From contig CM059440.1 in assembly GCA_030390025.1 (NCBI GenBank), positions 63,240,001 through 63,304,000 on the forward strand: a DNA stretch of 64,000 nucleotides, given 5' to 3'. Position 1 is the first letter of the stretch. Every line of letters begins with the position of its first letter. The position numbers and the translations under genes were made by a program. This document shows positions 21,645 to 63,104 of the stretch, one piece after another. Source of the stretch: Squalus acanthias. Taxonomy: Eukaryota. Below the pieces are notes generated by a model that searched no databases, was not told where the DNA came from, and saw nothing but the letters and a program-made list of their open reading frames with translations.

Positions 21645-21940
21645 CTGAGAAGTTATACCTATCAGGAATGGTTGAACAGGCTGTGGGGCTCTTTTCTCTA
21701 GAAAAGAGAAGGCTGAAGGGTGACCTGAGAGGTGTCTTTAAGATTATGAAAGTGTTTCATAGGGAGTAATTGAGGCGAGTAACAGATGCATTTAAGGGGA
21801 AGCTAGATAAATCATGAGGGAAAAAGGAGTAGAAGGTTATGCTAATAGGGTAAGATGAAGTAGGGCGAGAGGAGGCTCGTGTGGAGCATAAACACCGGCA
21901 TAGACCAGTTGGGCCAAATGGCCTGTTTCTATGCTGTACA
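21645..21940 (+). mobile_element. CR1-type LINE 3' end with internal deletion
   Basis: LFSLEKRRL.GDL coding remnant joined to the family 3' UTR. Confidence 0.8.
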
Positions 21941-22044
21941 CTCGATTTAGCATCAAATTCCTGTCTACTGTGTGCATCATGACTGGCTGTGACTGTGTTG
22001 ATTCGATAGTCTCCAATTTTGGTGTTTGCTTTCAGAGACTAAAG

Positions 22045-22345
22045 AAAAGACTTCCATTTATATTGCACCTTTCGCTACCTCCAGACATCCCAAAGCATTT
22101 ACAGCCAATGAGTCACTGTTGTAATGTAGGAAACGCGGCAGCCAATTTGCACACTGCAAGCTCCCACAAACAGCAATAAGATACATGACCAGATAATCTG
22201 TTCTAGTGATATTGGTGGAGGATAAATGTTGGGCAGGACACTGGGGAGAACTCCCCATCTCTACTTCAAAATAGTATGGGATCTTTTATGACCACATGAG
22301 AGGGCAGACGGGGGGGGGCCTCAGTTTAGGGCCTCATCCGAAAGA
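22045..22345 (-). mobile_element. Deu-domain SINE, 3' portion
   Basis: Reverse complement of 31480-31775. Confidence 0.8.
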
Positions 22346-25300: not shown

Positions 25301-25490
25301 AGGGCAACGCAATTGAACCTGATCGTGTCCTCTCCTCCCAACACATGCATACAGTCTCTTAAGAAGGAGTCACTGTGGTGATCAAAATTAGGAACCCTGG
25401 CTTTATTCCCATCCCATCCATCCCCCTAATAGTGAGGTACTGAGGCCATTTGAAGGGCTGAGGTACTGTTCTCTTGCTTCAATTTTTAGA

Positions 25491-25720
25491 GGTGAGGACT
25501 TTTGGATAAGAAAATTGGAGTTAACCAACCCAAAAGATTTGAAAATGCAAAAATTCTGATTGCAAACACTAGTATGGATACAGACAAAATTAAGATATTT
25601 GGTTGTCGTGTGCGAGTAAATTCTACAGCAAAAGTTGCAGAGATTGAACTGGCTGAAAAGAAAAAGATGAAAGAGAAGGTGGATCAAATCCTGAAACATG
25701 GGATTAATTCTTTTATCAGT
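25491..25720 (+). pseudogene. CCT2: Intronless internal fragment of CCT2 (TCP-1 beta chaperonin) inside YTHDF2 intron 4
   Basis: Translates as [73 protein letters not shown], closely matching human CCT2 [73 protein letters not shown]. No other CCT2 sequence was seen in the window. Confidence 0.88.
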
Positions 25721-27479
25721 TGTTTTAGCTGATGCATATTTCTGTTCTGTAGTGAATACAGTCACCACTGCAAAAGTAGCAATAGAGTGAATGGCCGTGA
25801 TGTGGGGGCAGTGATGTGTGAGGTTTAATTCGGGCGAGGGAAACAAGTTTTCTTTTTTTTACCTCTTTCCCTAAGAACATTAAGCTGTAAATGCTAATTA
25901 ATCACTGCAGATAAATAGCAACAATCATCCACTGCAATGTACCCTTCCAAAATTGCAAGGATTATACAAACTAGAGATATTTGAGTTTTTAAAATCAAAC
26001 TTCCATGCTACATTAGCCCTTATGTCAGAAATATTTTCATCTCTGAATTGCACCTTTATCAAATGAGAGGATCAGTTTCTAAACTTCTAAAATTGAAGAA
26101 ATAATATATATTTGATTCAGAAGCTTCTAGGAATAAAAATGAGAACATCGTGGCTTTTTGGTCCTCAATGTTCTGGCAGTCTTGAGATTTATTTGAATTT
26201 CTTTGGTAATCTGATAAGTGATGTCATTTATTGGGTTACCCTCGGGTTCAAGAAACTCAAACTCTTGGAATTGCTCAGACCCCTGGCTTGCTGCTTATTG
26301 ATCTTATTGAATGGCGGAGCATGCTCGAAGGGCCGAATGGCCTACTCCCGCTCCTATTTCTTATGTTATAAACAAAAAGGATAAAGTCAATGGATTATAC
26401 AGTGGACACCACAGGTGACATCTATACTTCTGTAGCGGCGTCTCCTGTATGCATAAGAAAACTGTTCATTGTAAAAAGTGAGTGCCAATTTTTGTAAACT
26501 GCACACACAATTAAAGCTGTTAATTCACCAAAGGCTGTTAAACGTTCCGACGCTTATGGTGTGAAATAAACACTGCACAGTACCAGTAAGACTGAGTGGG
26601 ACACATTTTGTAAATGGGGAGAAGTCTTTTAGGGTTTCCAACCATTAATGTCTCCTTGCTTTAAGGATCTGTTTGTGCAAGAGGGGAAATGTGGTTTTGT
26701 GACACTAGGCTATAAATCCAACTCGTGCTCTCCTTAGGCAATGACTTCTGATGCCCAGAATGCATGTTTTTTTTTTCTTTCCCATTTCTGTCCTGGTTGT
26801 ACCAGGAGGATATCTTGTAATTACCACTTGCACTGGCGTTGCAAAAAACTTTTAATAAATCACAAGTGCCAATCACCTCAACACATGCATCATCACATGA
26901 GATGCATTCTGCAGCATGTAGTCTGGACTCCCAGACTAGTTTGCAGTTGTACTGTGATCTATAAGGTCAGCGTGATGTTCCATTCTTTGCCAGTTCGAAC
27001 TGGCCGTACTGGAATCTGCACTTTGTCCAAATAATGAGTTCTGGTGTAAGCCATGGAGTGTAAGTGAAGTGTAAATGTGCCCCAGCTGGGCAACCTGCTT
27101 GTGGGTTTCACATCCTGGGAAAGTGACATTTTGCAATTCCCCGATGTCTGGAGCTGTGTAAATCGGTTACAGTGCAGACTGATGCACAAAAATGGTAGCG
27201 GTGAGAAAAATGAAAATGCTCAGGTGAGCTAAGCTAACGAGAAAACGAACCACGAGGGATGTGTCCCAGGAGAAAGGCATATGTTAGGATAACAGGAGAG
27301 ACATGATTGTAGGCTTAATTACAACTGGATTTTGCCAATGCAATTTGCAGTAGTTAGTTCTCAAATTTGATCTAACTTTGGGAAAAAATGATCCATGGTA
27401 TTTATTCTTTGGGGTTTGTTTTGCGCATTAAGAACAGTTTTAAAAGGATATATTTAAGAATCTTTTACCAATGCAAAAA

Positions 27480-27695
27480 AGCCGGCGGGGAGATGAGGAG
27501 AAATTTTTTTATTCAGCAAGTTATGATCTGGAATGCACTGCCTGAAAGGGAAGTAGATTCAATATTAACTTTCAAAAGGGAATTGGATAAATACTTGAAA
27601 AGCCTATGGGGAAAGAACAGGGGAGTGGCACTAATTGGATAGCTCTTTCAGAGAGCCAGCACAGGCACAATGGGCCGAATGGCGGCCTCCTGTGC
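27480..27695 (+). mobile_element. CR1-type LINE 3' end
   Basis: GEMRRNFF...IWNALPE...FKRELDKYL coding remnant plus 3' UTR. Confidence 0.8.
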
Positions 27696-28894
27696 TCATT
27701 CTATGTTTATGTAATAAATCAGTCTCTTTCTCATTGGCTCGTTCCCTTTCCCTCCTGAAGGTGTTGACTGGGGTGCAGTTTGAGAACACACCCCCCCCTC
27801 CCCCCAAGGATAACACACTAAGGTTATATAATATCGCACCAGAATACCAGAATGCATAAAAGTACAAAACAGTATGACTGCTGATATATGTAATAAATAT
27901 AAAGATTGAAACAAATCTGCAGATAGTGTGTTGTAAACTCATTCAAAGCTAGTGTTCCTAAGCCACAGTGACGCACCAGTGAATGGCAATCGCAAAAGAT
28001 TTCTTTAGTTTTAAATGTAACTATAATTCAGCATTTCTAAGCAGTTGGGTCTGAATGACCAGCGTCAGTGTATGCACACACTACCCTGTGTAGGAGTGGC
28101 TGGCTGAGTGCCCTCTTGCTATGCCCTGAAACCTGTCGAGGTAAGCACCATTGGAGCTGTGTAAATGTGAAATCAGCCCCAATAAAACAAAGCAAACGAT
28201 TGATTTCAATGCAGCCCAGAATAAACTTGTCATCCAGGGTCTGAGGTTACTCACCTTGCCAACAATCCCTGTTGAATAAACTTGTCAAAAGATTAGCAGG
28301 ATTCTGTCTGTGACTTGTCCATAATATTTGGAGTTTTACTTTTTGGCCGTAGAAAAATAAATTGGCATTTTGTTGATAAAATAATTCCCAGGTTGTTTCC
28401 ACCATCTCTCTCTTCTCCCCCTAAATAGATGGTGGAAGAGAGGGGCAGAAGAACAGAAGTAAATGTCACGCTTTTTAAAGCTTCTTTCATTTGAAAAAAT
28501 TAAGTTAGTATATTAGGGTAAAATTGAAGTTCGAATGACAGATTGGGGAATGACTGGAACAGCAGGTTTAAAAAGTGACCACAGGGTGAGCTGAAATGTT
28601 ATTTTGTCTAAAATGTTTACAGTTGAGATTAAGGTAGTAAGTTATTTTTGATAGGGATGGCGTTATCACTAAAGAGCCTTTTCATTGTTAGCACGAGCTA
28701 AAAACATGCCAAACTGGTTAGTCCAGGAAGACAGGAAAAAATAATTCGAAAATTAGGCATTTGGAGTGACACATATTTCGTTTTATTTTCCTTGTCCAAA
28801 TTTGCTCCTATCCATGGCTTTTTTTGGGGGGTTGGGTGCAAGGTTTCATGGGTTCCTCTTGCCTCATCCTAAATGGGCATTCATTACCTAAAGA

Positions 28895-29345
28895 CTTAAG
28901 AACATATGAAAAATGATAGACAGGAAAAAGACCTTCTGGTCCATCCAGCCTGTCCCACACAGTAGTGATGTTTTGTGCATAACAATACAGACACTCCCCA
29001 CCCCACCTCTCGGAGCCATGTAATCTCCTGGGAGAGGCGAAAAACCAGATTAAAAACCCAGGCCAATTGGGGGAAAAGCTCTCGAATTCCTCACTGATGC
29101 CCTTAGGCCATCAAAGCCAGTCCAGGAGTCCGCCCTGGTCCTGATTAGCACAATGTACCTACCTCTTGTACAAGGTGATCTCCCTCCACCCCAGCCAGAA
29201 AGAGGTTGAAGGAATTCAGTGAGCTGGTAACCTGTTCCACAGGTCCACTATTCTCTGATATAAAGAAACACCTCCTGGCATCTAACCTAGTTCTGCCCTG
29301 ACATAACTTGTAAGAGTGGCCCCAGGTCCTCCTTAACCTATTCAG
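28895..29345 (-). mobile_element. Probable LINE 3' fragment (CR1-like, different subfamily)
   Basis: TAAGAACAT...CTGGTCCATCCAGCCTGTCC terminus and minus-strand RGHSYKL / FFISENSGPVE-like remnant of the CR1 C-terminus. Confidence 0.45.
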
Positions 29346-30252
29346 TTGAATTAGTCAATGAATGGCAAGTTAATCTACTGTGGAAGCATTACATGTAGCC
29401 CTATACTTATCCAACACCCACACTTTCCAGCAGGGGCTACTGATGGCAATTAGGATTTTAAGCCTGAGCTGATATTTCATAACCCTCCTCTCATCTTCAT
29501 GTCCTTATTCTCTATCTCTTCCCCCCCCCCCCCCCCCCCCCCCCCCAACCACAAGCCCAGGGCACTGAGAGCAATTGTTGCATCCTCCTTGTCCTGGTCA
29601 ACATTTCTTCCTCAGTTGGGACCACCGAAAAGCAGATGAATTGGGCATTGATCTTGTTTGGTTGAGAGAACATGCTACATGCAAATTGTCTCCATGTTTT
29701 CCTACAAAGGTGGCAGCCTTTCAGAAGTAATTCATTGGTTGTGAAGTGTTTTGGAGTGTCCCGAGGATATTGGACATTGCTTAAAAGCAACTTTGTTCTT
29801 CATTTCCCACCTTTGCCAATAGATAATACAGCTCATACTAGACGTTGAGCCATCAACAGATTTTAATTTATCGTCGCCAATCAGAGAAAATTGGGTCCTA
29901 GGTTTATCAAGACCTGATTGATAATTAATAGAATCAAAGATTGTTCCAACACAGACACAGCCCATCGAGTCTGAGCCGGTTCTCCACATGAGTCACACAG
30001 TCCAATCCCCCTCTCCTGCTTGCTTCCCATAGCAATTTGGAAAAGAGGAATATTAAAGGATATCTATCTTCCCCTTTAAAAGAATTTACGGACTCTTGAT
30101 TCAACATTCTAACCGCCCAAGGTGTAAAGGTTTTTTCTCCACAGAATTTCTCTTTTTTTTATTTTAGTTGTGTGATTGTATTTTGTTGTCACTGAAACAT
30201 GAAGCAGCTTTGGGAAATATGTATTAATTGAATTGTTTCCTTTTCTTTACAG

Positions 30253-30276
30253 GAACGTCAAGGTCGTGTCAAGTAA
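30253..30276 (+). CDS. YTHDF2: YTHDF2 terminal coding exon 5 (ERQGRVK-stop)
   Basis: Strong acceptor TTTCCTTTTCTTTACAG; phase 0 continuation of ...VKK; matches the human C-terminus ERQGRGK. Confidence 0.93.
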   Translation, partial: ERQGRVK

Positions 30277-31165
30277 CGATGTATTCTCTGAAAATGTGAC
30301 GTCGACCTGAATGTCGTGTCCTGAATTTTCTTCAAGAAATTGAGTGATAATGAAGACCCCCCCCCCCCCTCCTCCCGTCCCTTCCTACCCGCCCACCCTC
30401 TTTCATTTTCAGTAAATTCTGCGACTTTCAGACTTGTAGTTGTCAAACTTAATCCTCTTCTATAGAACTATGGTAATGATAGCAAGAACTAGGTGGGGGG
30501 GAAAAAATGTTTAAAAATCCTTTCTCAACTATCGGTTGTGACTTTATAAAGTGGTACAACTTGTTTTCCTTCTGTTTAAAAAAAAAATTATTAAAAAAAA
30601 GAATCATTTTTTGATTTTTTATGGTCCGTGGGCTACATTTAAATGCATTTCCTGGGGAAAGAAACCAGCTGCCTCACAGCATCCGAATTGTCATCGCACA
30701 GCTGGGTCAGCACGTGGACAGATTCCTTCTCCGACTCACTCGAGAGGTTTCATTTATGGAGCCCAAATTGTTTCATCCAGGCCCTTTTGAGAGAGCCTCT
30801 TGCCCCACCTTTTCCTGAAAATGCTGCTCGTTTCGTTTTGAAAGCGCTCCGGGAAAGAGCGGTTACTTTTCTGTTTCTCCCTCCTTTTGTTGCAAAAAAT
30901 AAAAAAATGGTTACTGTTCACAAATGTTAAAGTGAGCAAGTTTTTTTTTAAATTGCTGCCAATTAAGTCTAAATCCACCTAATTAAAAAAAACAAGACTG
31001 GACTAAAGGAATACTGTAAAAGGAACCTTTTTGGACACTGAACTTTGAGAAACAAAAACTGCTTAGAATCTTTTTTCAGCCCTCATCAACAGTGAAAAGC
31101 TGGGAATTTACCCTTTCTTCATTATTAATCACTTCTCAGTAATAAATGTGATATCCTGTTCAGCA
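30277..31165 (+). other. YTHDF2: YTHDF2 3' UTR (about 0.9 kb)
   Basis: Repeat-free AU-rich sequence from the stop codon to AATAAA at 31141; interspersed repeats resume just afterwards. Confidence 0.7.
31141..31146 (+). terminator. Polyadenylation signal of YTHDF2
   Basis: AATAAA followed about 30-50 nt later by a GU/U-rich tract (GCGTTTGATGCTTTTTTTTGG). A second AATAAA lies at 30898-30903. Confidence 0.7.
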
Positions 31166-37822: not shown

Positions 37823-38402
37823 CATGTGACATCACGAATCCAGCTACACAGTCAGTGTGTGACATCACAGATCCAGCTACACGATAGGTGTATGACATCA
37901 CAGATGCAGCTGCACGATAGATGTATGACATCACAGAGCCAGCTACACGATCGGTGTGTGACATCACAGATCCAGCTACACGATCAGTGCGTGACATCAC
38001 AGATCCAGCTACACGATTGGTGTGTGGCATCACAGATCCAGCTACACGATCAGTGCGTGACATCACAGATCCAGCTACACGATCAGTGTGTGACATCACA
38101 GATCCAGCTACAGGATCAGTGCGTGACATCACAGATCCAGCTACACGATCGGTGTGTGACATCAGAGATCCAGCTACACGATCAGTGCGTGACATCACAG
38201 ATCCAGCTACACGATCGGTGTGTGACATCAGAGATCCAGCTACACGATTGGTGTGTGACATCAAAGATCCAGCTACACGATCGGTGTGTGACATCAGAGA
38301 TCCAGCTACACGATTGGTGTGTGACATCAAAGATCCAGCTACACGATCGGTGTGTGACATCAGAGATCCAGCTACACGATTGGTGTGTGACATCACAGAT
38401 CC
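37823..38402. repeat. 33-bp minisatellite, about 17 copies
   Basis: Unit GTGACATCACAGATCCAGCTACACGATCGGTGT with minor variants. Confidence 0.95.
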
Positions 38403-38771
38403 ACTCTATCCCCAAAGCTCTGAACTCTTTCGACTCTGTTCCTTCTTCCTATCAATGGCCTCATCCACTCACATACACCCCTATCCACTCTTTTGCTGAT
38501 AATTCCATTCATTTTTCATCACCTTCCTTGAGATCACACAGTTTCAGTGTTCACACCCTCCAGGTTTCTCCTAGTGCAATATCTCTACCCAGTGCACATT
38601 TGTCTCCTCCATTGCTCCCTAATGGACCAATGAAAATCTCTTTCAGTTCTTCAAAGAAAGTTTCTTCATGTCTCTCACAAGTCCAACCAACAACCCCCAT
38701 CTTCTCCCTTTGAGGCCCAGCATTTAGTTCCTGTTGATCAATTGACATAATTGGCCTCCTGAGGTGTCAGC

Positions 38772-40914: not shown

Positions 40915-41340
40915 AGAAGAGATTGAGTAGAATGGGCCTATATTCTCTGGAGTTTAGAAGAATGAGAGGTGATCTCATTGAAACGTATAAAATTCTGAGC
41001 GAGCTTGACAGGGTAGATGCTGAGAGGCTGTTTCTGGCCTGGCTAGAGAGTCTAGAACTAGGGGTCATCGTCTTAGGATAAGAGGTCGGTCATTTAGGAC
41101 TGACATTTTTTCACTGAGGGTTGTGAATCTTTGGAATTCTCTACCCCAGAGGGCTGTGGATGCTCAGTCGTTGAGTATATTCAAGACTGAGATTGATAGA
41201 TTTTTGGATACTAAGGGAATCAAGGGATATGGGGATTGGGTGAGAAAGTGGAGATGTAGAAGAAGATTAGCCATAATCTTATTGAATGGTGGAACAGGCT
41301 CGAGGGGCCGAATGGCCTACTCCTGCTCCTATTTCTTATG
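40915..41340 (+). mobile_element. CR1-type LINE 3' end
   Basis: RLSRMGLYSLEFRRMRGDLIETYKIL and NLWNSLPQRAVDA...FKTEIDRFL. Confidence 0.88.
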
Positions 41341-41679
41341 TAAGAGAAGCTGTCTGATGTCACTAATGCAGCCTAGGGGTGACACTGATCAATTTTAACC
41401 CTATGCTGTCCTTGTCTCCACGCATTGCCGCCTTTTGTAGACACTGGATACAAAAATCAGCAAACTTACTGCGGCAATCAGAAAATATCACAGTAGCTTT
41501 GATTTTGAAGTAATATCACTGAAAGTAACTGGTGGCTCAGTCTCCGCTGAAACCAGCTACTTATAAAATACACAGACTATGCTTTCCTCTGACAGACTAC
41601 AGGCCAGACTCAATCCCCGTTCAGCCTTCATCTCAAGATAGCTGGAACACAAAGGGGTGTAATGTATGCTTCAGTTATA

Positions 41680-43909: not shown

Positions 43910-44520
43910 ATGAGGTTAGGCCTCAGCTGGAGTATTGAGTACAAATCTGGGCACCACACTTTAGGAAGGACATCAAGGCCCTGGAGAGGGTACAGAGGAG
44001 GTTTACCCAGATGATGCCAGGGATGAGGGAGTTCAGTTATGTGGCGAGATTGGAGAAGCCGGGATTGTTCTCCTTAGAGCAGAGAAGGCTAAGGGGAGAC
44101 CTAATTGAGGTATTCAAAATTATGAGGGGTTTTGATAGAGCAAGTAGGGAGAAACTGTTTCCTCCAGCAAGTGGGTCGGTAACCAGAGGTCACAGATTTA
44201 AAATAATTGGCAAAAGAACGAGAGGGGAAATGAGAAATTTCTTCATACAATCCTGTGAAGTGCCTTGGGATGTTTTACTATGTTAAAGGCACTATATAAA
44301 TACAAGTTTTTGTTGTTGTTGTTAAGATCTGGAACGCACTACCTGAAAGTGTGGTGGAAGCAGATTCCATAGTAACCTTCGAAGGGCAATTGGACATGCA
44401 TTTGAAGAGAACTAATTTGCAGGGCTGTGGGGAAAGAGCAGGGGAGTGGGACTAATTGGATAGCTCTTTCAAAGAGCCGGCACAGGCACGATGGTCCTTC
44501 TGTGCTGTAAGAGTCTATGA
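43910..44520 (+). mobile_element. CR1-type LINE 3' end with a nested L2/SINE tail at about 44250-44322
   Basis: VRPQLEY...GLFSLEQRRLRGDLIEVFKIMRG...TRGHRFKIIGKR; CR1 sequence resumes after the insert. Confidence 0.88.
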
Positions 44521-45924: not shown

Positions 45925-46175
45925 TAGGGAAAAGGAGAATTATTTTTATGCAGTGAGTTGTTGTGATCTGGAATGCACTGCCTGAAAGGGCGGTGGAAGC
46001 AGATTCAATAGTAACTTTCAAAAGGGAGTTGGATAAATACTTGAAGGGGATAAATTTGCAGCACTATAGGGGAAGAGCAGGGGGAGTGGGACTAATTGGA
46101 TCGCTCTTTCAAAGAGCAGGCACAGGCATGATGGGCCGAATGGCCTCCTTCTGTGCTGTGTCATTCTATGATTCT
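45925..46175 (+). mobile_element. CR1-type LINE 3' end
   Basis: IWNALPERAVEADSIVTFKRELDKYL; ends in TTCTATGATTCTAT. Confidence 0.85.
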
Positions 46176-47334
46176 ATAACTGTTTTATTACAGTATGTAA
46201 ATATTAAATATGGAATCAAAGAAACGCAACCAGCAAGTCACATGCTCGAGACCGCAATGTTCAGAAAGTGCTTTAAAGCGTTATTCCCACAAAATAGTCA
46301 AATTTGAAATGGAGGATTACTGATTTTTTTTATATATACTTTCAAGACGATGTGAAATATTTTAATTAACTGCGGCCCAAACGCAGCTGTTTTTGATGTG
46401 ATTCTGGGCTCAAACCTCAAACTGGTCCCACGGGACAGTCACTTCCCCAGGAGAGCGAGCAGAGATACGGTCCATCAAACCCCAGGACACATCCGCCGTT
46501 ATAAATATGGATAACCCACCGCGGCGAGTAAAGCTTTGAAAGGAAATTGCGAAAACGCCTGGCGTTTGTTGTCTGCACCTGTTTCTGTGTGTGTGCAAAA
46601 AAAAACAGCGATCCCTTTGGCGCTGAATTGTGTAGAATAAAGCGTGAATCTAGAGGGAAAAATCGAGGGAGGAAAACAGCGTCCCACCCCTGATTGATGG
46701 ATATGCAAATATTAAAAATAAACGAGTCAGATATTCTCAGCTGTAAACTGACTTTGACTGCTTGAAGCCCTCGGGGAGCCCTTTCTACCACGAGTTCCAT
46801 ACATTTATGCATTTATTCAGTTCCTGATGGAAATCTACATCCAAAGCAAGAGAGAGAGAACAGAAACAAATACACAGAATAACAAAATTGCATGTGCTGA
46901 CTTCGTTTGGCCACAGAAAGTATTTGACATTTATACTTAGAAAATTCTTGGCTATTTGGTTAATCTGGGTATCACGCGAAATAATTTATCTTAAACTCCG
47001 AGGTATATCTACTGCACAAAAGCATCCAGAAAACGGCAGCAGAATGTGCAAAGTGATTTTCATAGTTTATTTATTAGCATTTGTTCTGTGTGCATAATAG
47101 ATATTCCAGTGAAGCAAGGCTAGATGATGGCGATAATTGGACCAGTCCCCAGTTTAAAGTCATACATTCCATCCTTACTTTTATATTTCCATTATAAATC
47201 TCCACGTCCACTTTAATAATGGAACCTGCCTGTGTAAAGTTGTCACGCTGTAATTGCACCATCCCACCAGTAGTGGCAGCACTGCCTCCACTGGCAGGAA
47301 AGTGTGACACATTTACAAGGTAACATACATAGAG

Positions 47335-48520
47335 TTTTTTTATTCCTTCATGGGATGTGGGCGTTGCTGGCAAGGCCAGCATTTATTGCCCATCCCTAGT
47401 TGCCCTTGAGAAGGTGATGGTGAGCCACCTTCTTGAACCGTTGCAGTCAGTGTGGTGAAGGTGCTCCCACAGTGCTGTTAGGGAGGGAGTTCCAGGATTT
47501 TGACCGAGCGACGATGAAGGATCGGCGATATACTTCCAAGTCAGGATGGTGTGTGACTTGGAGGGGAACTTGGAGGTGGTGGTGTTCCCATTTGCCTGCT
47601 GCCCTTGTCCTTCTAGGTGGTAGGGGTTGTGGGTTTGGGACGTGCTACTGAAGAAGCCTTGGCGAGTTGCTGCAGTGCATCTTGTAGATGGTACACACTG
47701 CAGCCACGGTACACCGGTGGTGGAGGGAGTGAATGTTTAAGGTGGTGGATGGGGTGCCAATCGAGCGGGCTGCTTTGTCTTGGATGGTGTCAAGCTTCTT
47801 GAGTGTTGTTGGAGCTGCACTCATCCAGGCAAGTGGAGAGTATTCCATCACACTCCTTACTTGTGCCTTGTAGATGGTGGAAAGGCTTTGGGGAGTCAGG
47901 AGGTGAGAAACTCTCCACAGAATACCCAGCCTCTGACCTGCTCTTGTTGCCACAGTATTTATGTGGCTGGTCCAGTTAAGTTTCTGGTCAATGGTGACCC
48001 CCAGGATATTGATGGTGGGGGATTCGGCGATGGTAATGCTGTTGAATGTCAAGGGGCGGTGGTTAGATGCTCGCTTGTTGGAGATAGTCATTGCCTGGCA
48101 CTTGTGTGGCACGAATGTTACCTGCCACTTATCAGCCCAAGCCTGAATGTCGTCCAGCTCTTGCTGCATGCGGGCATGGACTGCTTCATTATCTGAGGAG
48201 TTGCGAATGGCACTGAACACTGTACAGTCATCAGCGAACATCCCCATTTCTGACCTTATGTTGGAGGGAAGGTCATTGATGAAGCAGCTGAAGATGGTTG
48301 GGCCTAGGACACTGCCCTGAGGAACTCCAGCAGCGATGTCCTGGGGCTGTGATGATTGACCTCCAACCACCACAACCATCTTCCTTTGTGCTAGGTATGA
48401 CTCCAGCCAGTGGAGAGTTTTCTCCTGATTCCCATTGACTTCAGTTTTACTAGGGCTCCTTGACGCCACACTCGGTCAAATACTGCCTTGATGTCAAGGG
48501 CAGTCACTCTCACCTCACCT
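47335..48520 (-). mobile_element. 5'-truncated non-LTR retrotransposon (CR1/L2 group) with a largely open reverse transcriptase frame
   Basis: Minus-strand ORF with RT motifs ALDIKAVFDRVW, GVPQGSVLGP, FADD and ILGVTID, one frameshift near 48430, and a 3' UTR ending in GAATAAAAAA. Confidence 0.92.
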
Positions 48521-51360: not shown

Positions 51361-51548
51361 TAAATACTATGTCATACTTTGTCATTTTTTTTCTTGAAAG
51401 TGATGAGAATTGCAATAAACGGTTCACCTCTGCTTACTGCAGGATTAAGGCGGACCCTGTACATGTAGAGTATAGGCCAACATTGGGATTAGAGGAACAG
51501 TGTTAGGGTTTGGGCTAGGCTCAGTGGTAGGGTTTAGGTTATTGATAG

Positions 51549-53138
51549 GGCTGGAGCAGGTGATGGGGTTGGGATTAACGATAGGGTTAGTGATAGGGCT
51601 AGGGCAGGTGATGGGGTTGGGATTAACGATAGGGTTAGTGATAGGGCTGGGGCAGGTGATGGGGTTGGGATTAACGATGGGGTTAGGGTTAGTGATTGGG
51701 CTAGGGCAGGTGATGGGGTTGGGATTAACGATAGGGTTAGTGATTGGGCTAGGGCAGGTGATGGGGTTGGGATTAACGATAGGGTTAGTGATAGGGCTGG
51801 GGCTGGTGATGGGGTTGGGATTAACGATGGGGTTAGGGTTAGTGATTGGGCTAGGGCAGGTGATGGGGTTGGGATTAACGATGGGGTTAGGGTTAGTGAT
51901 TGGGCTGGGGCAGGTGATGGGGTTGGGATTAACGATGGGGTTAGGGTTAGTGATTGGGCTAGGGCAGGTGATGGGGTTGGGATTAACGATGGGGTTAGGG
52001 TTAGTGATTGGGCTGGGGCAGGTGATGGGGTTGGGATTAACGATGGGGTTAGGGTTAGTGATTGGGCTAGGGCAGTTGATGGGGTTGGGATTAACGATAG
52101 GGTTAGGGTTAGTGATTGGGCTAGGGCAGGTGATGGGGTTGGGATTAACGATGGGGTTAGGGTTAGTGATTGGGCTAGGGCAGTTGATGGGGTTGGGATT
52201 AACGATAGGGTTAGGGTTAGTGATTGGGCTAGGGCAGGTGATGGGGTTGGGATTAACGATGGGGTTAGGGTTAGTGATTGGGCTGGGGCAGGTGATGGGG
52301 TTGGGATTAACGATGGGGTTAGGGTTAGTGATTGGGCTAGGGCAGTTGATGGGGTTGGGATTAACGATAGGGTTAGGGTTAGTGATTGGGCTAGGGCAGG
52401 TGATGGGGTTGGGATTAACGATAGGGTTAGGGTTAGTGATAGGGCTGGGGCAGGTGATGGGGTTGGGATTAACGATGGGGTTAGGGTTAGTGATTGGGCT
52501 GGGGCAGGTGATGGGGTTGGGATTAACGATGGGGTTAGGGTTAGTGATTGGGCTAGGGCAGGTGATGGGGTTGGGATTAACGATGGGGTTAGGGTTAGTG
52601 ATTGGGCTGGGGCAGGTGATGGGGTTGGGATTAACGATGGGGTTAGGGTTAGTGATTGGGCTGGGGCAGGTGATGGGGTTGGGATTAACGATGGGGTTAG
52701 GGTTAGTGATTGGGCTAGGGCAGGTGATGGGGTTGGGATTAACGATGGGGTTAGGGTTAGTGATTGGGCTGGGGCAGGTGATGGGGTTGGGATTAACGAT
52801 GGGGTTAGGGTTAGTGATAGGGCTGGGGCAGTTGATGGGGTTGGGATTAACGATGGGGTTAGGGTTAGTGATTGGGCTGGGGCAGGTGATGGGGTTGGGA
52901 TTAACGATGGGGTTAGGGTTAGTGATTGGGCTAGGGCAGGTGATGGGGTTGGGATTAACGATGGGGTTAGGGTTAGTGATTGGGCTGGGGCAGGTGATGG
53001 GGTTGGGATTAACGATGGGGTTAGGGTTAGTGATAGGGCTGGGGCAGGTGATGGGGTTGGGATTAACGATGGGGTTAGGGTTAGTGATTGGGCTGGGGCA
53101 GGTGATGGGGTTGGGATTAACGATGGGGTTAGGGTTAG
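51549..53138. repeat. 54-bp (early units 48-bp) G-rich satellite made of degenerate TTAGGG-like hexamers, about 30 copies
   Basis: Unit CTGGGG CAGGTG ATGGGG TTGGGA TTAACG ATGGGG TTAGGG TTAGTG ATTGGG. Confidence 0.95.
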
Positions 53139-54529
53139 TGGTGAGAGTAAGAATGTTAACTGGGTTGTTAGTGATTGGCCTGGAGTTCCTGCTGAATTGG
53201 GGTTAGTGGTGAGTGGCCCATGTGATTCGGGTTAAGGTTAGGACTAAATTTGAGGCAAATTGCAAAATAATCAAAATATCAGTCAAAGCAGATACCAATC
53301 CCAGAATGGAACCTGTATCATCCTGTGCGTGTGTTTGTTCTTGTCCTTTAGTAAATCTCCTCTAGATTCGTATTTAATATTGCGACGAATAAAACTTCGT
53401 GCAAAACAAAGGAAATCTAATAAATTGATTTTGAGTTAAAAGTCCAAATGCGCTGCGCGTTGAGATTAAAAGCTTCAGGTCGGATAATTCAGCCGCAAAA
53501 TTTTAGACTTTGCTTTGTCATTGAACACGGTTCTGAAGGATACTTGGAACCAGCGGAAGCGATTTACGCCCTGGGTCCGCCGGTTAACCGGTGCCTGTCC
53601 AATCTGTTCTAAAACATAACTGAATATTAACATATAAATTGTGTACACGACCAGTCTCCACGTATATCAACATATTTATCCACGTTAAAATCTCGTTCGA
53701 TGCGAATTTCCTTCTTGTCCTTAAATGCACTCACTGAAGGCAGAACCTCGCCCCGGGACATCTCATTCTTGATTGACCAGACCCGGCACAGCCCGTCCAG
53801 GACAAGTCGGGATATGGTGTATATACATTAATTGCATGTACAATTATTTTAATCATCAATACATTTAACTTAATCGAAATTGTAATGTAGTTTGAAGATA
53901 TGAATCCGCCCCCAATGCCCTGCCTGTGCCGGGACGCGCTTTGCGGATACTGATACCAATCTGAGCAAGACCCGGCTGTACCTGGGCCGCTTTGTATCCG
54001 CTGTGTAAAGAACCCATTTGTATATTTGGGAATACTAGCACCAGATTTACTTTTAAAGATCAGTAATCACTCTGAACTAGCGTTAACGATTCGAAACGAT
54101 CTGTGGCCAACCCATAACCGCCCTTGATCTGGGGCGGATATAATTCCCATGTTAAATTGCCCCTTTTAGTTTTGTGTAATTATCTGGTCAATTCAGCGCA
54201 GTGTGTGTGTGTTGGGGGGGGGGGGGGGTAGAATTAAATAGAAATACCTTTAAAACCCAAAGAGCGGCCAGCGTTTGCGCCATCCTACAAGCGCCTCCAG
54301 CATTATCATTTCGATTACGTTAAATGTATTTATGATTAAAACATAGAAAAAATCATTGCAAATACATTTCAAATCCTTTTTCCTAATTCACAATGTTAAG
54401 TTGTGATGAAGTGGCGTGTGGAGCTATCTGTGAACAAAGCGGCGGGACCGGGATCTTGGGCTGAGAATTTAACAAATACATTTAATAACCGCACTCAGAT
54501 CGTGAAGTTGACACTGTTTCGGCAGCTGA

Positions 54530-55570
54530 CTGTGTGTGTCTGCATGTGTGTGTCTGCATGTGTCCGTCTGTGAATGAGTGCATGAGTGTGTGTGTGCCTG
54601 TGTGTGTGTGTGCCTGTGTGTGTGTGTGTGCCTGTGTGTGTGTGTGTGTGCCTGTGTGTGTGTGCCTGAGTGTGTGTGTGCCTGAGAGTGTGTGTGAGCC
54701 TGTGTGTGCCTGAGCCTGAGTGAGTGTGTGTGCCTGAGTGTGTGTGAGCCTGTGTGTGCCTGAGCCTGAGTGAGTGTGTGTGCGTGAGTGTGTGTGAGCC
54801 TGTGCCTGAGTGCGTGTGTGTGCCTGAGTGTGTGTGTGTGCCAGTGTGTGTGAGTCTGTGCCTGAGTTTGAGCCTGTGCCTGAGTGTGTGTGTGCCTGTG
54901 CCAAAGTGNNNNNNNNNNNNNNNNNNNNNNNNNNNNNNNNNNNNNNNNNNNNNNNNNNNNNNNNNNNNNNNNNNNNNNNNNNNNNNNNNNNNNNNNNNNN
55001 NNNNNNNNNNNNNNNNNNNNNNNNNNNNNNNNNNNNNNNNNNNNNNNNNNNNNNNNNNNNNNNNNNNNNNNNNNNNNNNNNNNNNNNNNNNNNNNNNNNN
55101 NNNNNNNNNNNNNNNNNNNNNNNNNNNNTGAGTGTGTGTGTGAGTGAGTGTGTGTGAGTGAACCTGTACCTGTGTGTGAGTGAGCCTGTGTGTGTGTGTG
55201 TGTGAGTGTGTGTGAGTGAACCTGTACCTGTGTGTGAGTGAGCCTGTGTGTGTGAGTGAGCCTGTGTGTGTGTGTGAGTGTGAGTGTGTGTGAGTGAACC
55301 TGTACCTGTGTGTGAGTGAGCCTGGGTGTGTGAGTGAGCCTGTGTGTGTGTGTGAGTGTGAGTGTGTGTGAGTGAACCTGTACCTGTGTGTGAGTGAGCC
55401 TGGGTGTGTGAGTGAGCCTGTGTGTGTGTGTGAGTGTGAGTGTGTGTGAGTGAACCTGTACCTGTGTGTGAGTGAGCCTGTGTGTGTGAGTGAGCCTGTG
55501 TGTGTGAGTGAGCCTGTGTGTGTGTGTGAGTGTGAGTGAGCCTGTGTGTGTGAGTGTGAGTGTGAGTGTG
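54530..55570. repeat. Complex (TG)n-derived microsatellite array, interrupted by an assembly gap
   Basis: TG runs punctuated by GCCTGAG, GAGTGAGCCT and GAGTGAACCTGTACCT motifs. Confidence 0.95.
54909..55128. other. Assembly gap (220 N)
   Basis: Run of N. Confidence 1.
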
Positions 55571-56460
55571 GTCATAAATGCGTCTCCGTCTGTCACTGAC
55601 CCAGGGTAAATCTCAACACACGGGAACAAAATCCCTTCAAATAGATTAACTTTGAAGGAGCTCAACTGCTGAATATTTTCCCGGTTTAATTTTCCTGAGA
55701 CAATATAATCCGCACGAATATATATGGAAGATGATTTCCAAATCAATTCTCTATTTAACTGCATAGTTTCGATTATAAATCCTTGCTGACCATATACAGA
55801 TGTTTTGTATGCATTAATGCAATCTCTCTTTACATGTATGTAATTCAAATAGAGATATCACATTAATAAATGCGTCCATTTAAAATCGCCGGACTGTTGG
55901 TCCGAGAATTCCCGGCCAGATCCCATGGAACCGGTTGGAGCTGTGGGCAGATTTAGCCCTCCCGGCCCTGCGCCACCATCCCGGCCGCAAAAACATGCTC
56001 CGACTCCCTTCAAGGAAAGCAATCGGGACGCGGACACGGATAGGCACCGATTAACACCCAGCGCTTTCTATCGCACAGACCCAGCGTGACAACCGAACCT
56101 CGGGAATCTGTTGTTTCACGGTCTGCAGTCAGAAATACATGTTGGGACATCAGGCGGCTGTGTTGGGGCACTCGGTATAACCTGCATCAACTCACAGGAA
56201 GGTTTGCAAACCATGTAGAAAACGCATCAGTTAATATGATTACAAGTTCACCAAGGGCAGTATAAATGTATCCACGATTTATTTCTCTCCATACTGTCCA
56301 TGCACCAATACATTTAACAACCCCCTCTATTCTATAAACACATTCAATACTTTTAGTGAGCAATATTTAGCATATAATTGTCTTACCAGCTTGCCACGTA
56401 ACTTAGACTTGCATTATTTCGAGCAATGCATTATTTCAAGGTCGTTTTTCGATTCCTCCC

Positions 56461-56519
56461 TTGGCATTCACCGCGTGCCTTAATTGTATGATATTAAATC
56501 AAGGTCCGCCGTGAACACG
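56461..56519 (-). ncRNA. MIR124: pre-miR-124 hairpin (mature 3p at 56461-56482, 5p at 56498-56519)
   Basis: The minus strand reads CGTGTTCACGGCGGACCTTGAT-TTAATATCATACAAT-TAAGGCACGCGGTGAATGCCAA. The 3p arm is an exact miR-124-3p, the arms are complementary, the flanks extend the basal stem, and a CNNC motif (CGAC) starts 17 nt downstream of the 3p end. Confidence 0.98.
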
Positions 56520-56624
56520 GAGAGCGAGAACCGAATCTCCGCTTTCCTTCCCCAACCCCGGGGCACAGCCCGCTTTCCGCCAGCACTGTAAATATTTGCT
56601 CCGTTTTGTCTGCCCGTTTGTTAC

Positions 56625-56912
56625 CTGTTCGCTGATAACCAGCCGGAGACCTTCCGCCTCACATCCTCACTGGAAGCGTCTCTCCTACTTTGGGATCGCA
56701 ATCGGCTGCTTAAAGAGTCGGATTTCGGTCTCTTAATTTTTAGGGTTTTTTTAAAAAAAAAGGTGAACCACTTTCCAGTCCGGGCGAGAGGAGATCCATA
56801 TTGCGGGTCCTTGTCCTCCTGTGCGTCTCTCTGTTTAAAGGGAGGGCGTTGAAAGTAGGGCAATGTCCCAGGTGGCTCCGGGTCCATCTGGTCTTTTCGG
56901 ATCCGCAACATC
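56625..56912 (-). ncRNA. Candidate internal exon of the miR-124 host transcript
   Basis: Minus-strand acceptor ...GTGTGTTTCTCTCTCCAG| at 56913 and donor CAG|GTAAC at 56624; same strand as the hairpin and about 105 nt upstream of it. Confidence 0.5.
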
Positions 56913-57326
56913 CTGGAGAGAGAAACACACACACACAGACACCAAACAAAAGATTGGACAATAACTGGCGGTGGCTCTGACGGTTACCGACTATTGGATC
57001 CAGGGAAGGCGGCCCTCAGACGGCGGATCTCAAACCCCCCCCCCCTCCCCCCACTCACAAAGTTAGGCTGAGAAATGCACCATTTTCAGACTACGACCCT
57101 CAAAATGCGCCTCCCCCCCCCCCCCCTCCCCAAATCGATAACAAGCCAAGGCGACGAGGGTGCCTTTCTCATTTTGTCGTTGTTGGAAAATGTGGATCTG
57201 AAGAGTAATGTTTTTTTTGGGGGGGGGATTTTTCTTCTTATGGGAGGGGGAGAACTTGATTCTTCAGCATCCGTGGCACTCGTCCGCTTTAGACTGGGGA
57301 TGGGGCGCGCTTGCTCTCACACTTAC

Positions 57327-57410
57327 ACTGAATGGTTTGACACAGTCTGTGCACCGCAGCCCCACTGCAGCCTGATCCTAGCCTCAGGACCACAGCTGGT
57401 GGGATCAGAC
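57327..57410 (-). ncRNA. Candidate first exon of the miR-124 host transcript (TSS approximate)
   Basis: Minus-strand donor CAGT|GTAAGT at 57326, just downstream of a CRE/CCAAT cluster; would give a 414-nt GT-AG intron (56913-57326). Confidence 0.4.
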
Positions 57411-57426
57411 TCTACCCCAACGGATT

Positions 57427-57534
57427 ATTGGGCGCTTCTGACGTCAGCACCAATGCTGCCTCTTGCAGGGCCAGTCTAACCCAACAGAAACGCTTTCCTC
57501 TCAATCCCGGGACTGCGGCGGGTACAGAGCCAAT
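57427..57534. promoter_or_regulatory. Candidate promoter: palindromic CRE flanked by CCAAT boxes
   Basis: TGACGTCA at 57439-57446, ATTGG at 57427-57431, CCAAT at 57450-57454 and 57530-57534, in CpG-rich sequence. Confidence 0.55.
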
Positions 57535-58205
57535 GTTAACAACCTAGTAACACTCGATTTTTTTCTTAAGAAGGCGCCTTTGAAAGCCCACTGCAACTAA
57601 TTTCTCATCAGACCAGCAATGCTCAACGAGTCTGATCGCTTCTAATCTCATAATGGTCCTCCACCCCCCCCCCCCCCCCCCACCAAAAAAGGTCAAATAT
57701 TGTAAGGGATTCAGCGGGATAAAAAGCCAACACTTTTTATCACTGGATACCGCCGAACAAATAGGTGTGACTGATGTTTATGACTGAGTTATTTAGGAGT
57801 TTGTTCATTTGATGTCCCGTCTATATATATATATATATATATAGTTAAGTGGGTATGGAAGCAAATCAATTATTTTTATATATATATATATAGCTTTTAA
57901 AATCTGCTATATCCCTCTTCGGGATTTATATCCCATTACCTGATCCGTTCAACTTATTCCCATCCAGTTGATGTATATAATCGGGGTAGGAAACGCACCC
58001 CTAATTTAGATCTAACTGATACATTCTGTTGTTTAAGGTTTAACTCCAAGATGCTGGAAAATATTTTCTTTTGTAATTTTTAACCAAGAATCAAAACGGA
58101 ATTTTTAGCGAAGGATTTAAACAAAAACGATTATCCCTAATCCTCCAACTAAGCATTTAAGAGGGCCCAATCTCTGCGGCTACAGAATGCGCGTGTTCCC
58201 TTGCT

Positions 58206-58510
58206 NNNNNNNNNNNNNNNNNNNNNNNNNNNNNNNNNNNNNNNNNNNNNNNNNNNNNNNNNNNNNNNNNNNNNNNNNNNNNNNNNNNNNNNNNNNNNNN
58301 NNNNNNNNNNNNNNNNNNNNNNNNNNNNNNNNNNNNNNNNNNNNNNNNNNNNNNNNNNNNNNNNNNNNNNNNNNNNNNNNNNNNNNNNNNNNNNNNNNNN
58401 NNNNNNNNNNNNNNNNNNNNNNNNNNNNNNNNNNNNNNNNNNNNNNNNNNNNNNNNNNNNNNNNNNNNNNNNNNNNNNNNNNNNNNNNNNNNNNNNNNNN
58501 NNNNNNNNNN
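58206..58510. other. Assembly gap (305 N)
   Basis: Run of N. Confidence 1.
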
Positions 58511-58837
58511 CGGATATATAGATATATACCAAAGTGTCAGGATCTTGATTGATTGGAATCAGAATAGACTTGACGCCAATTATTTTTATAAATTAACTAT
58601 CTATCCCGCGGCCCTCAGAGAGTTCAGAAAGGCAGATGAAGCCGGGATCGATATGTACAATTAATTTCTTTAACTCTATTATCGTGCTGAAGAGATACAT
58701 CCATCATTCCGATTTGATTACCAAATGTATCATTTCCTCCTTTTAATCCTAAATGTATAATCCGGTGAAGGACCATAGATCAGATGGCCCGGGACTTAGT
58801 CTATATTGGAGCAGAATCCCAATTCTGAGAGGCTCGG

Positions 58838-58858
58838 CGCGCTGTCCGTGGTGCTGAG
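58838..58858 (-). promoter_or_regulatory. REST/NRSF binding site (RE1/NRSE)
   Basis: Minus strand CTCAGCACCACGGACAGCGCG versus consensus TTCAGCACCACGGACAGCGCC (19/21 identical, canonical 2-nt spacer). Confidence 0.88.
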
Positions 58859-58984
58859 CGGCGCTAGCAAATGGATAGAGAGAAGTACTGTCCTGTGATA
58901 AAGCTCTCCCTGCAACTGAGAGGTTATGGACCAGAATCATTAACGGGGTCATTTAAAAAAACAAAAATAGAGCATTGATACATA

Positions 58985-59070
58985 CCATCGCCTTCTCAAG
59001 GGCAACTAGGGATGGTCAATAAATGCCGGCCGTGCCAACGACGCCCACATCCCGAGAATGAATAAAAAAT
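58985..59070 (+). mobile_element. Very short 3' tail of the LINE family at 47335-48520
   Basis: CCTTCTCAAGGGCAACTAGGGATGG...ACGCCCACATCCCGAGAATGAATAAAAAA. Confidence 0.75.
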
Positions 59071-62000
59071 ACTTCATTGGATTGGAAGTCTAACAAATTT
59101 ACAACAAGTATGATATTGAACACACGATCTAAAATAAATGTAAAATATAGCAAAAACCAAGGAGAATATTCCTGAACAGTAATAATTCTATATTTTCGAT
59201 ATGAGGGTGAGAGGCGATTAAACTTGTGCCTTTTAATCTACCGAAATAAGAAATATTCCCCTCACAAATTTCACGAGTATGTAGTTTTTAAAGTACCACG
59301 GGCCGAGGCCGGATTAAAGATTCCTTATTGCCTGATGAAGATATGGAAGACCTATTGACTGACCTCGCATCACAGTAATGTAATATAACGCTCTCTCCAA
59401 CTTACATGGGCTCAATAGAAAGTCCATTTCGTTACAATCGGCGCAGCCCCTTCAAGCCGATTTGCCCGGCAGTGGGGATTTTACCGAGAGCCGCCGGGCA
59501 TAATTACAACGAGAAACAGCAAGCTTTTCCAATTGAGAAATCGAACAGTTCAAACATTGAAAATCTGACCTCTTACTTCTCACGATGTCCTCGGGAGGAA
59601 CAGCGCACGGTGACATTCAGATGCACCAAATTCAAATATTTGTTATTATTATTCTCCCCCCCTCCTCTTTCTCGACATCTCACTGATCCAGATCCAGATG
59701 AGATAGCTCAGAGATTACAGGCCGGTCTGTTGCGGGTCATGGCAATGGGCCGGCCTCTTTGAATTATTCCACTCTTTCTACCTCCCCACTGTGCTTTTGT
59801 TCCTATTTTTATTCTTATCGCCTGCTCTCACCATCTGCATAAATTGATGCGCTGAGCTCGGGTCAGAAGTCTGATGTGTGTGTGTGGAGGGGAGGAGGGG
59901 TATTAATGGTTGGGTGGTTGAGGGGTCTTTTCAACACTGGAAGAGGAGGGGGGGGGGAGTTGCTGAGACAAGACTAATAATTGCAGTCAGCTGCCTGACG
60001 CGTGCCCTCTATAAATCTGACACCGGGACACCAGATGGCCCAACTCCGGAGTTCCAAATCCACCCCCACCCCCCACCCCCATCCTCATCTCCCAAAATGT
60101 GCCCAGTGCCCTTTGTGGGGCTGTAGCAGCCAATGGCACAAACTCGGCCGTCCCGTTGGCAGGACAGGCGGTTCCTCGCAGTCGCAGGATGCTCTGGACC
60201 TGCCGATCTCCCCTCGCCCCTCAGCTATGCCGGGACACAGTGCAATGCAAGTGCAAAATGTTGCAGCAAATAGACTGTTCAGCTGGGAACTGGGCGGTAT
60301 TCACTTTATTGGAGCAAGATCATTCAAATAATTACCGAATCACCCACTGTATCAGTGTTTCTCTTATTGATAAATTTAGGAAAATAGGAAGATCAGAACG
60401 CAAGGTCTGTGGGACCAATTAAAACGAAACACACACATTGTTTATAAGAAAACATACCCCTCTGATACTTGTAAATTCGTTCTATTTGATATTCTAACTT
60501 TAAATTGCAAACGATTTCAGTACTTTACGTTCAGTATTTGGGGTTATGTTTTGAAACTAGCAATACAAGTAACAAAATCAGACCTACAGATTCAGACTGT
60601 TTTCTGTATTTTATATTAAAAGTGTCAACGCCACTTCAGATGCAAATTCTATGCAAACCGAAAGGGGGGACATTTAGAAGAATGTTTGAGTTATAACAAC
60701 GCGAAGCGGCGCAGCCACAATTACACCCGAATAATGAGATTCAGTGACATGATTACGCAGGAAAAAGATGTTTTTTTGAAACATATAAAGGTAAGGATTG
60801 CACGGCGCAATTCAAATACATTTCCCATTTTAAAGTATCAGGATTGAGACTCTAGCGTCCAAATTCTGATGAAAAGTTTCAAAACAATTTTTTAAAAAAC
60901 AGAACTGAACATTTGTAACTGCATCTGGCACTTTGAAGCAAGGGAATAAAACAGGCTTAAAACTCGGCCCAAAAGCAGAATTTGTAAAAAAAAATGTTTC
61001 GCCTGTTATAACCTGGCCTTGTTTAGCCAAGAAAAGTACAATTTACCGCTGGAATTAAACACAATCAATGAAGGTTTAAATGATCGACCTGGTACTGTAC
61101 CAGCGAATGGATTCGATTGAGGGGCGAATGGGATGAGATGGGGACAAAATATATCATCTTTTTGAAAGATCAACTTGTTTTTTATATGGGTGGGGTGGGG
61201 GGTGGGTGGAGGATATTGAGAAGGTTTCACCTCTCACTTGTTCTCCTGATCAGGAAACCTCTCGGTTAGGGCTTTAAAAAACCTAAATCTTTCTTAAATG
61301 TACAGAGCAATAAATGAGCAACTGCAAGCTGACAAAAGACACATCGATCTGTTTTGTATGGTAAGTATTCCCACTGCGACAGAAGGTGCTCAGCGCCTGC
61401 ATTCTCCGTCGCAGGTTGTAACCCCGCTGGCTTCTCGCCTTTAAAAGAAAATATCGAAAATTAAAACCAAAAAAAAGATCAATTCTAAGCCCAAATCTCC
61501 CATTCTTTGTGCATAAAACGTCCTCGCTGTAAAAAAATAGTTTTTCGATGCAATTGATTAAATCTACAAAAAAACACACAATTTTTTGTGGTAATTTCTG
61601 ATTTTCTTCAGGGGGAGGTGGTGGGATGAGCTGATTAGATTATTACAAATCCTAACTGCTTTACGTTTGAATACAGTCATGCAATGTAGATTATAGGCAG
61701 AGAGAAAAGCCCAGCCACAGAACAGAAGGGTTCGTTATCGATCCCAGAGTTTAACGTTTGTACATTTAATAGACTTGTGTTACTTACAGCCAGCGAACGA
61801 CGCGAAGTTGTTGCAGTCTAGAAGGCATCATTGGGAGTGTTATTTTTTAACTGTTATTTTAATGGTGAGGCTGTTTCTCAGCGGCGCAATGCCCGAGGAC
61901 CAGGCTCCGATGATGTGGTCTAATTACTTAATTTTTTTTCGCATTGTAAAAGCTATAACATTTTTTTTTTGGAACCAGGATAGGAGCTGAGAGGAAACGA

Positions 62001-63104
62001 TTCCGCGCAGAACAAAGACGGGGCGGGGGGTTTGGGGTAGAGAGACGGAGAGGGGGTTCTGGGAGAGGAGATGACTAAGTCGGCGAGCTCAGTCCCACAA
62101 CCTCAGTTTCCTTTTCTGTTTTCTCCCACTCCCCAGAGGTGGGGGCTATACATCTATAATTAACCCTTTCACCGCCTTACACAGCATACTCGGTTTTTAT
62201 GTTCAACACTGGTGCTGTGTTTACAAAAATCGCCTTTATTTCCTGGTACCTCACCTGACATGGATTCAGTCTGGCGAGATGTCAGGTGTTTTAAGACGAG
62301 GTGAGAGGTACACATGTAAATGGGATTAAAATATAGGCGGCTGTAAATCCTCATTAGATTCTAACCCCCCATCCAGTGCTTCATCGAGATGTCAGAAGGT
62401 GGAATGAGTTGGGCTGGGGCCGTAAATATACGGACTCCAGAGGAATTTCCAGATATAATCGTTAAGGATTAAGAATGAGAAAAGATACTCGGGAATCTGA
62501 GATTTAAAACTAGCCCGGCGTTTCATTCCTGCAGTCACTGTCTCGAAACGTTCCCTCATCTGGGAAATAAAACACGCTTTTCAACATATGGGGGTAAATG
62601 AAGGCACTATCTTGCAATACTGAAATTCTTTTTAATGTTAGAACTAGTGTTGTGTTCTTATTGACGAAAGAGATGAAACAGTCTTTACATCAAAGACAAG
62701 CACCAGGCAATTCTGACCAACAGCAGGGAGAATTGGGCCGCTGGCTATAGTCCAAAGCACTAGTTTAGGGAGAGTGGAGAAACGTTCTGTGAGCGATTCC
62801 CCAAACCCACTCAGTTCATGTCAGCAGTTCTAAAAGAAAACAAAAAAAATCACCAATGGTGATTTTTTTTTTTAGATTCCATAAAGTACACGAGATATAT
62901 ATTTTTTAAACCCACAGATTTCTTGTGTATATGAAAATCCGCCATCTCTTACTGATCTGTCTGGAGCATGGATCTGTTGAAAAAGTATTTCTTCTGCTTT
63001 TCCCATTTTCTTTCTAGTTTCTCCAGCTGGTTTAATATTTTCTCTACCCCCTCACACTGCCATATCATTTGTGTTGCAGTCTACATTACATAGTAAAGAA
63101 ACAT

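Follow-up and report, generated by a model that had tools for sequence, protein, structure and literature searches.

The window analysed here, a stretch of 64,000 nucleotides from Squalus acanthias, carries a miR-124 hairpin facing a YTHDF gene, and the locus raises the question of which vertebrate miR-124 paralogue this is and how old its position beside YTHDF may be. It is very probably the shark orthologue of Mir-124-P4 (2-beta, linkage group J; the mir-124-4 of fishes), retained in its ancestral position facing YTHDF2 and working like other miR-124 genes.

The miR-124 hairpin and its neighbouring gene

The family mir-124 (RF00239) is the sole gathering-level Rfam match across the 64 kb (56456-56526, minus strand; 81.9 bits with a cut-off of 49 bits, E-value 1.6e-17). 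The full model (1-72) is covered and the window contains one miR-124 copy. The region folds with a z of -5.17, none of 200 shuffles being equally stable, and the minus-strand fold beats the plus-strand fold at all the four flank lengths. The entire stem-loop including the basal stem spans 56448-56536 (minus) in the fold of 56445-56540, and the predicted pre-miRNA of 59 nt extends from 56519 to 56461. The arm ends have been assigned by analogy to annotated mature forms and not from reads; with these ends the duplex has 2-nt offsets at both ends in the predicted fold. The miR-124-3p arm (56461-56482, minus) has an intact seed and agrees with the Rfam consensus and with the medaka 3p mature, the first 20 nt being identical by eye. 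The 5p star arm (56498-56519, minus) is supported by the Rfam match, the comparison with medaka and the fold, and the loop is 15 nt long. A CNNC motif (56441-56444, minus) at +17 from the 3p end is the only one in the downstream 30 nt; a basal UG at -14 and a UGU or GUG in the loop are absent from the hairpin.

Compared with the RF00239 consensus the shark hairpin is full-length, but it has an A to G change at position 10 of the 5p arm and a G to A change in the loop. The G at 5p position 10 (56510, minus) is unpaired in the fold and is an A in the consensus and in the medaka copies. This variant is potentially diagnostic of the locus and together with the loop could provide a locus-specific read signature, usable for measuring expression from this single miR-124 locus. 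By family score, 3p arm, fold and CNNC the hairpin is an intact, ordinary canonical copy of a miR-124 gene. The exact miR-124-3p, 5p arm, basal stem and CNNC at +17 noticed in a preliminary description of this DNA are all present. An AATAAA that follows the hairpin at a distance of about 180 nt (56278-56283, minus) may serve as poly(A) signal for the primary transcript. Just upstream, an acceptor-like (56925) and a donor-like (56627) splice motif have been identified on the minus strand by pattern match only; a host-transcript exon of about 290 nt between them is possible, in which case the miRNA would be intronic in some isoforms.

The neighbouring gene has a coding span of five exons and 573 amino acids on the plus strand (1008-30276; exons 1008-1034, 1232-1256, 4041-4120, 10524-12089 and 30253-30276), described by the exon model, Pfam, homologues and a tree. 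All the introns are GT-AG and the frame is uninterrupted. The last intron (12090-30252) is 18 kb long and the final coding exon is made up of seven codons and the stop. The protein contains a YTH domain (PF04146, Pfam), and the top database matches of exon 4 are the YTHDF2 proteins of Carcharodon (98%) and Callorhinchus (90%). The window protein shares an identity of 74.9-96.9% with 12 named YTHDF2 proteins, 63.4-70.5% with 9 of YTHDF1 and 68.2-72.3% with 10 of YTHDF3. For a tree without outgroup the window protein was combined with 31 named proteins out of 120 matches listed (the other 89, 8 unnamed among them, were omitted), the paralogue labels being database names. Each of the three labels forms one group (100/100, 100/100 and 100/99), and the window protein falls within the YTHDF2 group at 100/100, beside the white-shark protein. 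The ray YTHDF1-like and the shark and chimaera YTHDF3 proteins fall into their own groups. The C-terminus of the window protein is of YTHDF2 type; the alternative C-terminus of a white-shark YTHDF2 isoform was not found in the six frames at a threshold of 6 of 8 residues.

If the gene were YTHDF1, the locus would be the ordinary orthologue of MIR124-3 (P3), a reading that the convergent layout and the distances of the upstream sites, near those of human MIR124-3 (-2437 and -968), would suit. The top three PDB matches by E-value are also YTHDF3 and YTHDF1 constructs. These constructs are however longer, because of which the E-value order is misleading, and over residues 331-502 of the query about 8 differences to YTHDF2 (4wqn) have been counted by eye against about 24 to YTHDF1 (4rci). 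With the tree position and the YTHDF2-type C-terminus also against it, this reading has next to no chance of being correct, and identity with YTHDF1 or YTHDF3 has been rejected. Judged from its protein sequence, the gene is YTHDF2 and not YTHDF1; the tree thus bears out the name preferred in the preliminary description, which had left YTHDF1 as the identity to be distinguished.

The miRNA on the minus strand is convergent with YTHDF2 on the plus strand. The hairpin lies 26.2 kb from the YTHDF2 stop and 25.3 kb from the distal AATAAA (31141-31146, plus; a second AATAAA is at 30898), from which the poly(A) site is deduced, in keeping with the earlier estimate of about 25 kb past the poly(A) site on the opposite strand. 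The Pfam scan covered 44 of the 80 ORFs of at least 100 residues; ORFs before 10.4 kb, in other frames over exon 4, in the satellite or containing Ns were omitted, and short exons escape such a scan. Since the matches (2 of 44) are limited to YTH and one reverse-transcriptase fragment, no further protein gene is evident between YTHDF2 and miR-124 among the ORFs scanned.

Continuity of the assembly and the choice of paralogue

The satellite and gap at 51.5-55.1 kb to which the preliminary description had drawn attention are both present between the gene and the miRNA. The gap of 220 Ns (54909-55128) lies inside a TG-rich compound array (54531-55570) recognised by repeat and k-mer inspection. 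The satellite (51530-53140) has about 30 copies of a 54-bp unit with 95% matches. Its plus strand is rich in G and contains telomere-like hexamers, and it could form G-quadruplexes. A miRNA block of another paralogon (P1, P2 or P3) might have been misjoined to YTHDF2 at one of these places, as 1.6 kb of satellite and the gap separate the two and the hairpin and its upstream layout resemble P1/P3-type loci. Against such a misjoin, the arrays flanking the gap have 19 ten-mers in common when read in the same orientation and 0 in opposite orientations. One 9-mer has 3 occurrences to the left of the gap, 11 to its right and no other in the window; the gap is accordingly placed within one array. The sequence has no Ns from the YTHDF2 stop to 54909. 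The CpG-enriched domain around the miRNA (53001-63000, one-kb bins) begins to the left of the gap, with an observed/expected ratio of 0.86 at 53-54 kb; the ratio is 0.60-0.92 in eight of its ten bins, the two low bins containing the TG array, and the median is 0.32 for 3-49 kb. Medaka independently has mir-124-4a on its ythdf2 chromosome (PMC8321539, PMC2865548). A misjoin is therefore considered very unlikely; one within the 54-bp satellite is possible and finds no positive support.

Other repeats of the window include a 33-bp tandem repeat of 17.5 copies (37825-38403), which gives rise to long spurious ORFs on both strands, and a LINE-type reverse-transcriptase fragment (47648-48475, minus; PF00078, E-value 1.8e-18). 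Visual inspection shows further LINE-like peptide remnants around 41024-41398, 43939-44286 and 45957-46307, none of which has a Pfam match. The block of 53.2-62.5 kb has a single repeat match elsewhere in the window, of 86 bp.

In MirGeneDB 2.1 (PMC8728216) Mir-124-P1 to P4 correspond to the subgenomes 1alpha, 2alpha, 1beta and 2beta (Peterson et al. 2022, PMC8789304). Mir-124 is on linkage group J, the gnathostome ancestor had four copies, and all four are kept in Callorhinchus milii (elephant shark), coelacanth and gar, the human being without 2beta (PMC8789304 SuppFile3). The loss entries of SuppFile4 score 124-P4 as lost in Theria (marsupials and placentals) and separately in Xenopus; the platypus loss is that of P2 and not P4, and no P4 loss is listed among these entries for chicken, alligator, turtle, lepidosaurs and caecilian (PMC8789304). 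Gar has four mir-124 loci including mir-124-4, which is also found in teleosts (Desvignes et al. 2021, PMC8321539), and we infer that P4 and the mir-124-4 of fishes are the same gene. The fourth ohnologue missing from human that the preliminary description had proposed is Mir-124-P4 (2beta), and its surmise that the paralogue might be catalogued in other fishes is correct for C. milii (P4) and for gar and teleosts (mir-124-4) (PMC8789304, PMC8321539). Its statement that mammals lost the miRNA holds for Theria and is too wide for mammals as a whole, the platypus being listed as losing P2 and not P4; the loss in Xenopus is a separate one. The catalogue already covers this fourth ohnologue, its occurrence in cartilaginous fishes and its loss in the human line.

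The tree and the published paralogon put the shark miR-124 locus in the paralogon that carries YTHDF2. Its 2beta placement uses GMEB1 and RPA2, which we take to be the human 1p35 neighbours of YTHDF2; YTHDF2 has been assigned to J-2beta because of this presumed adjacency and the J-2beta placement of these genes. Chicken gga-mir-124b presumably lies near 23:2.51 Mb. A GMEB copy and RPA2 are placed on J-2beta in SuppFile1 of PMC8789304. YTHDF1, YTHDF2 and YTHDF3 are part of the opioid-receptor 2R paralogon, the fourth paralogon being given there without a YTHDF gene, and YTHDF2 is located on chicken 23 (2.52 Mb), zebrafish 17 and medaka 22 (8.76 Mb) (Sundstrom et al. 2010, PMC2865548). In medaka, mir-124-4a maps to 22:9.19 Mb (PMC8321539), and other medaka copies are on the ythdf3 chromosome (20) and the ythdf1 chromosome (7) (PMC8321539, PMC2865548). 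Medaka mir-124-4a and ythdf2 thus have chromosome 22 in common at about 0.4 Mb from each other across two different assemblies, which makes their true distance and order unreadable from these tables. As a separate observation, ola-mir-124-4b is on medaka chromosome 17, which is grouped beside the ythdf3 chromosome and not that of ythdf2 (PMC8321539, PMC2865548), and whether it is rightly named as a duplicate of mir-124-4 may be worth re-examining. A text search of PMC11407899 gave no passage on synteny.

Comparison by eye with six medaka hairpins (PMC8321539) gives a mixed signal. The 5p arm differs by one change from medaka mir-124-2/3/5 and by three from mir-124-4a, and the 15-nt loop and 59-nt length agree with P1 as aligned in MirGeneDB, where the P1 block is 59 columns wide and the P4 block 61. 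The first 10 nt of the 3' flank are nearest to medaka mir-124-6, a copy on the ythdf1 chromosome, and the UGU-less loop is common to the shark hairpin and medaka mir-124-4a and 4b and also to mir-124-6. The spacing of the upstream RE1 and CRE, resembling that of human MIR124-3, likewise speaks against P4. The hairpin by itself does not discriminate between the paralogues; the P4 label is the most likely one and is drawn from the synteny with YTHDF2.

Upstream sites and the proposed working of the locus

A perfect match to the RE1/NRSE, the site of REST, has been identified on the strand of the hairpin, about 2.3 kb upstream of it (58839-58857, minus) and beyond the second N gap (58206-58510) relative to the hairpin. 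The pattern used, which was set against the NRSEs tabulated in PMC1794552, has one match in the window with 0.02 expected, and 2 of 100 shuffles contain a match. A palindromic CRE, the site of CREB, lies about 0.92 kb upstream (57439-57446) and is the sole copy in the window. One such copy occurs in 35 of 100 whole-window shuffles, and in 3.6% of 3000 simulated 5-kb regions, and the evidence of the CRE by itself is weak. The human MIR124-1, MIR124-2 and MIR124-3 have NRSEs at -21721, -3795 and -2437, and CREs are given for MIR124-2 (-1913) and MIR124-3 (-968) (Wu and Xie 2006, PMC1794552).

The RE1 and CRE together point to a probable REST-gated neuronal expression. Expression, processing and binding of REST and CREB at the shark locus are predicted by analogy with the known loci, as follows. 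A Pol II primary transcript would arise from the minus strand; REST bound to the RE1 would keep it off outside neurons, and CREB would activate it in neurons through the CRE. Drosha/DGCR8, aided by the CNNC, and then Dicer would release miR-124-3p, which would join the pool common to the other three loci and repress non-neuronal mRNAs. The redundancy of the P4 locus could have led to its loss in therians and Xenopus.

The locus might instead be intact in sequence and silent or weakly processed, as a decaying copy of the beta subgenome. The miRNAs of the beta subgenome are on average more weakly expressed and more frequently lost (PMC8789304), and the missing basal UG and apical UGU would be in line with decay. 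The perfect 3p arm, the pairing that has been kept, the CNNC, the perfect RE1 and the CpG-rich domain argue against it, as does the brain-enriched miR-124-4-5p of gar, from the orthologous locus (PMC8321539), and we consider a silent or failing locus improbable.

Sites matching the miR-124 seed as 6mer or 7mer-m8 are absent from the five YTHDF2 exons and the 3' UTR to 31170, and direct targeting of YTHDF2 by miR-124 has been rejected. From the AATAAA on the minus strand, 180 nt beyond the hairpin, it appears that the two transcripts do not overlap. Because YTHDF2 has no seed site and the transcripts apparently lack overlap, the nearness of miR-124 to YTHDF2 is best read as inherited synteny and not as direct regulation.

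Age of the YTHDF-miR-124 linkage and comparison with known loci

The strand of human YTHDF1 is presumed to be that which makes it convergent with MIR124-3. By published coordinates, about 17 kb separate MIR124-3 from YTHDF1, and about 1.2 Mb separate MIR124-2 from YTHDF3 (PMC2865548, PMC1794552), which fits the earlier description of MIR124-3 as lying beside YTHDF1 and MIR124-2 in the YTHDF3 region. The linkage of YTHDF and miR-124 is seen in the paralogons 1beta and 2beta, which suggests its origin before the first duplication; from these two paralogons we infer a pre-duplication linkage. The RE1 and CRE are at -2.3 kb and -0.92 kb in the shark and at -2437 and -968 in human MIR124-3, in paralogons that split at 1R, and the layout upstream of miR-124 may, by this analogy, be as old as the vertebrate genome duplications. 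Such a pre-duplication origin is of limited weight unless a constraint on function can be demonstrated.

A functional constraint would mean that YTHDF and miR-124 formed a regulatory block before duplication, the enhancers of miR-124 lying within or near YTHDF, or convergent transcription tuning YTHDF in neurons. The close linkage in two paralogons separated at the first duplication (26 kb here and about 17 kb in human MIR124-3-YTHDF1) and the similar RE1/CRE layouts speak for it. However, YTHDF2 is without a miR-124 seed site, the position of the minus-strand AATAAA suggests non-overlapping transcripts, MIR124-2 is far from YTHDF3 (PMC2865548, PMC1794552), the fourth paralogon is listed without YTHDF (PMC2865548), and therians lost P4 and retained YTHDF2 (PMC8789304, PMC2865548). 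Linkage kept by function is an unlikely explanation. The same small chance is given to the fuller proposal that RE1, CRE and miR-124, with a YTHDF m6A reader opposite them, already formed a unit before the first vertebrate duplication and have been kept together as a regulatory block. In that case enhancers or a chromatin state might be common to a neuronal miRNA and an mRNA-decay reader. In the open-access literature, most subscription journals being outside this scope, no paper was found that explicitly describes the YTHDF-miR-124 linkage or the RE1/CRE layout common to the paralogons.

As a new finding the locus carries small weight, since published tables already include the fourth ohnologue and its loss in therians and since the mature product is identical to that of the other loci. 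The analysis gives the P4 label a defined setting in a shark, next to YTHDF2. New detail, which the preliminary description does not mention, is the perfect RE1 about 2.3 kb and the CRE about 0.9 kb upstream, with a spacing near that of human MIR124-3.

In relation to the known control of miR-124 by REST and CREB (PMC1794552), the shark hairpin is alike in having an RE1 and a CRE upstream; the loci treated in that study are mammalian only, and the shark sites are known as sequence motifs. With Mir-124-P4/mir-124-4 (loc-mir-124-4, dre-mir-124-4a, ola-mir-124-4a/b) it shares the 3p seed, and the medaka copy is on the ythdf2 chromosome. Unlike medaka mir-124-4a, the shark 5p arm has its three differing positions and a loop shorter by 1 nt (by eye). 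The locus resembles human MIR124-3 in lying near a YTHDF gene and in the distances of its NRSE and CRE (-2437 and -968 in human, about -2.3 kb and -0.92 kb in the shark). It differs in that the shark neighbour is YTHDF2, of the sister paralogon, which makes the two loci ohnologues and not orthologues.
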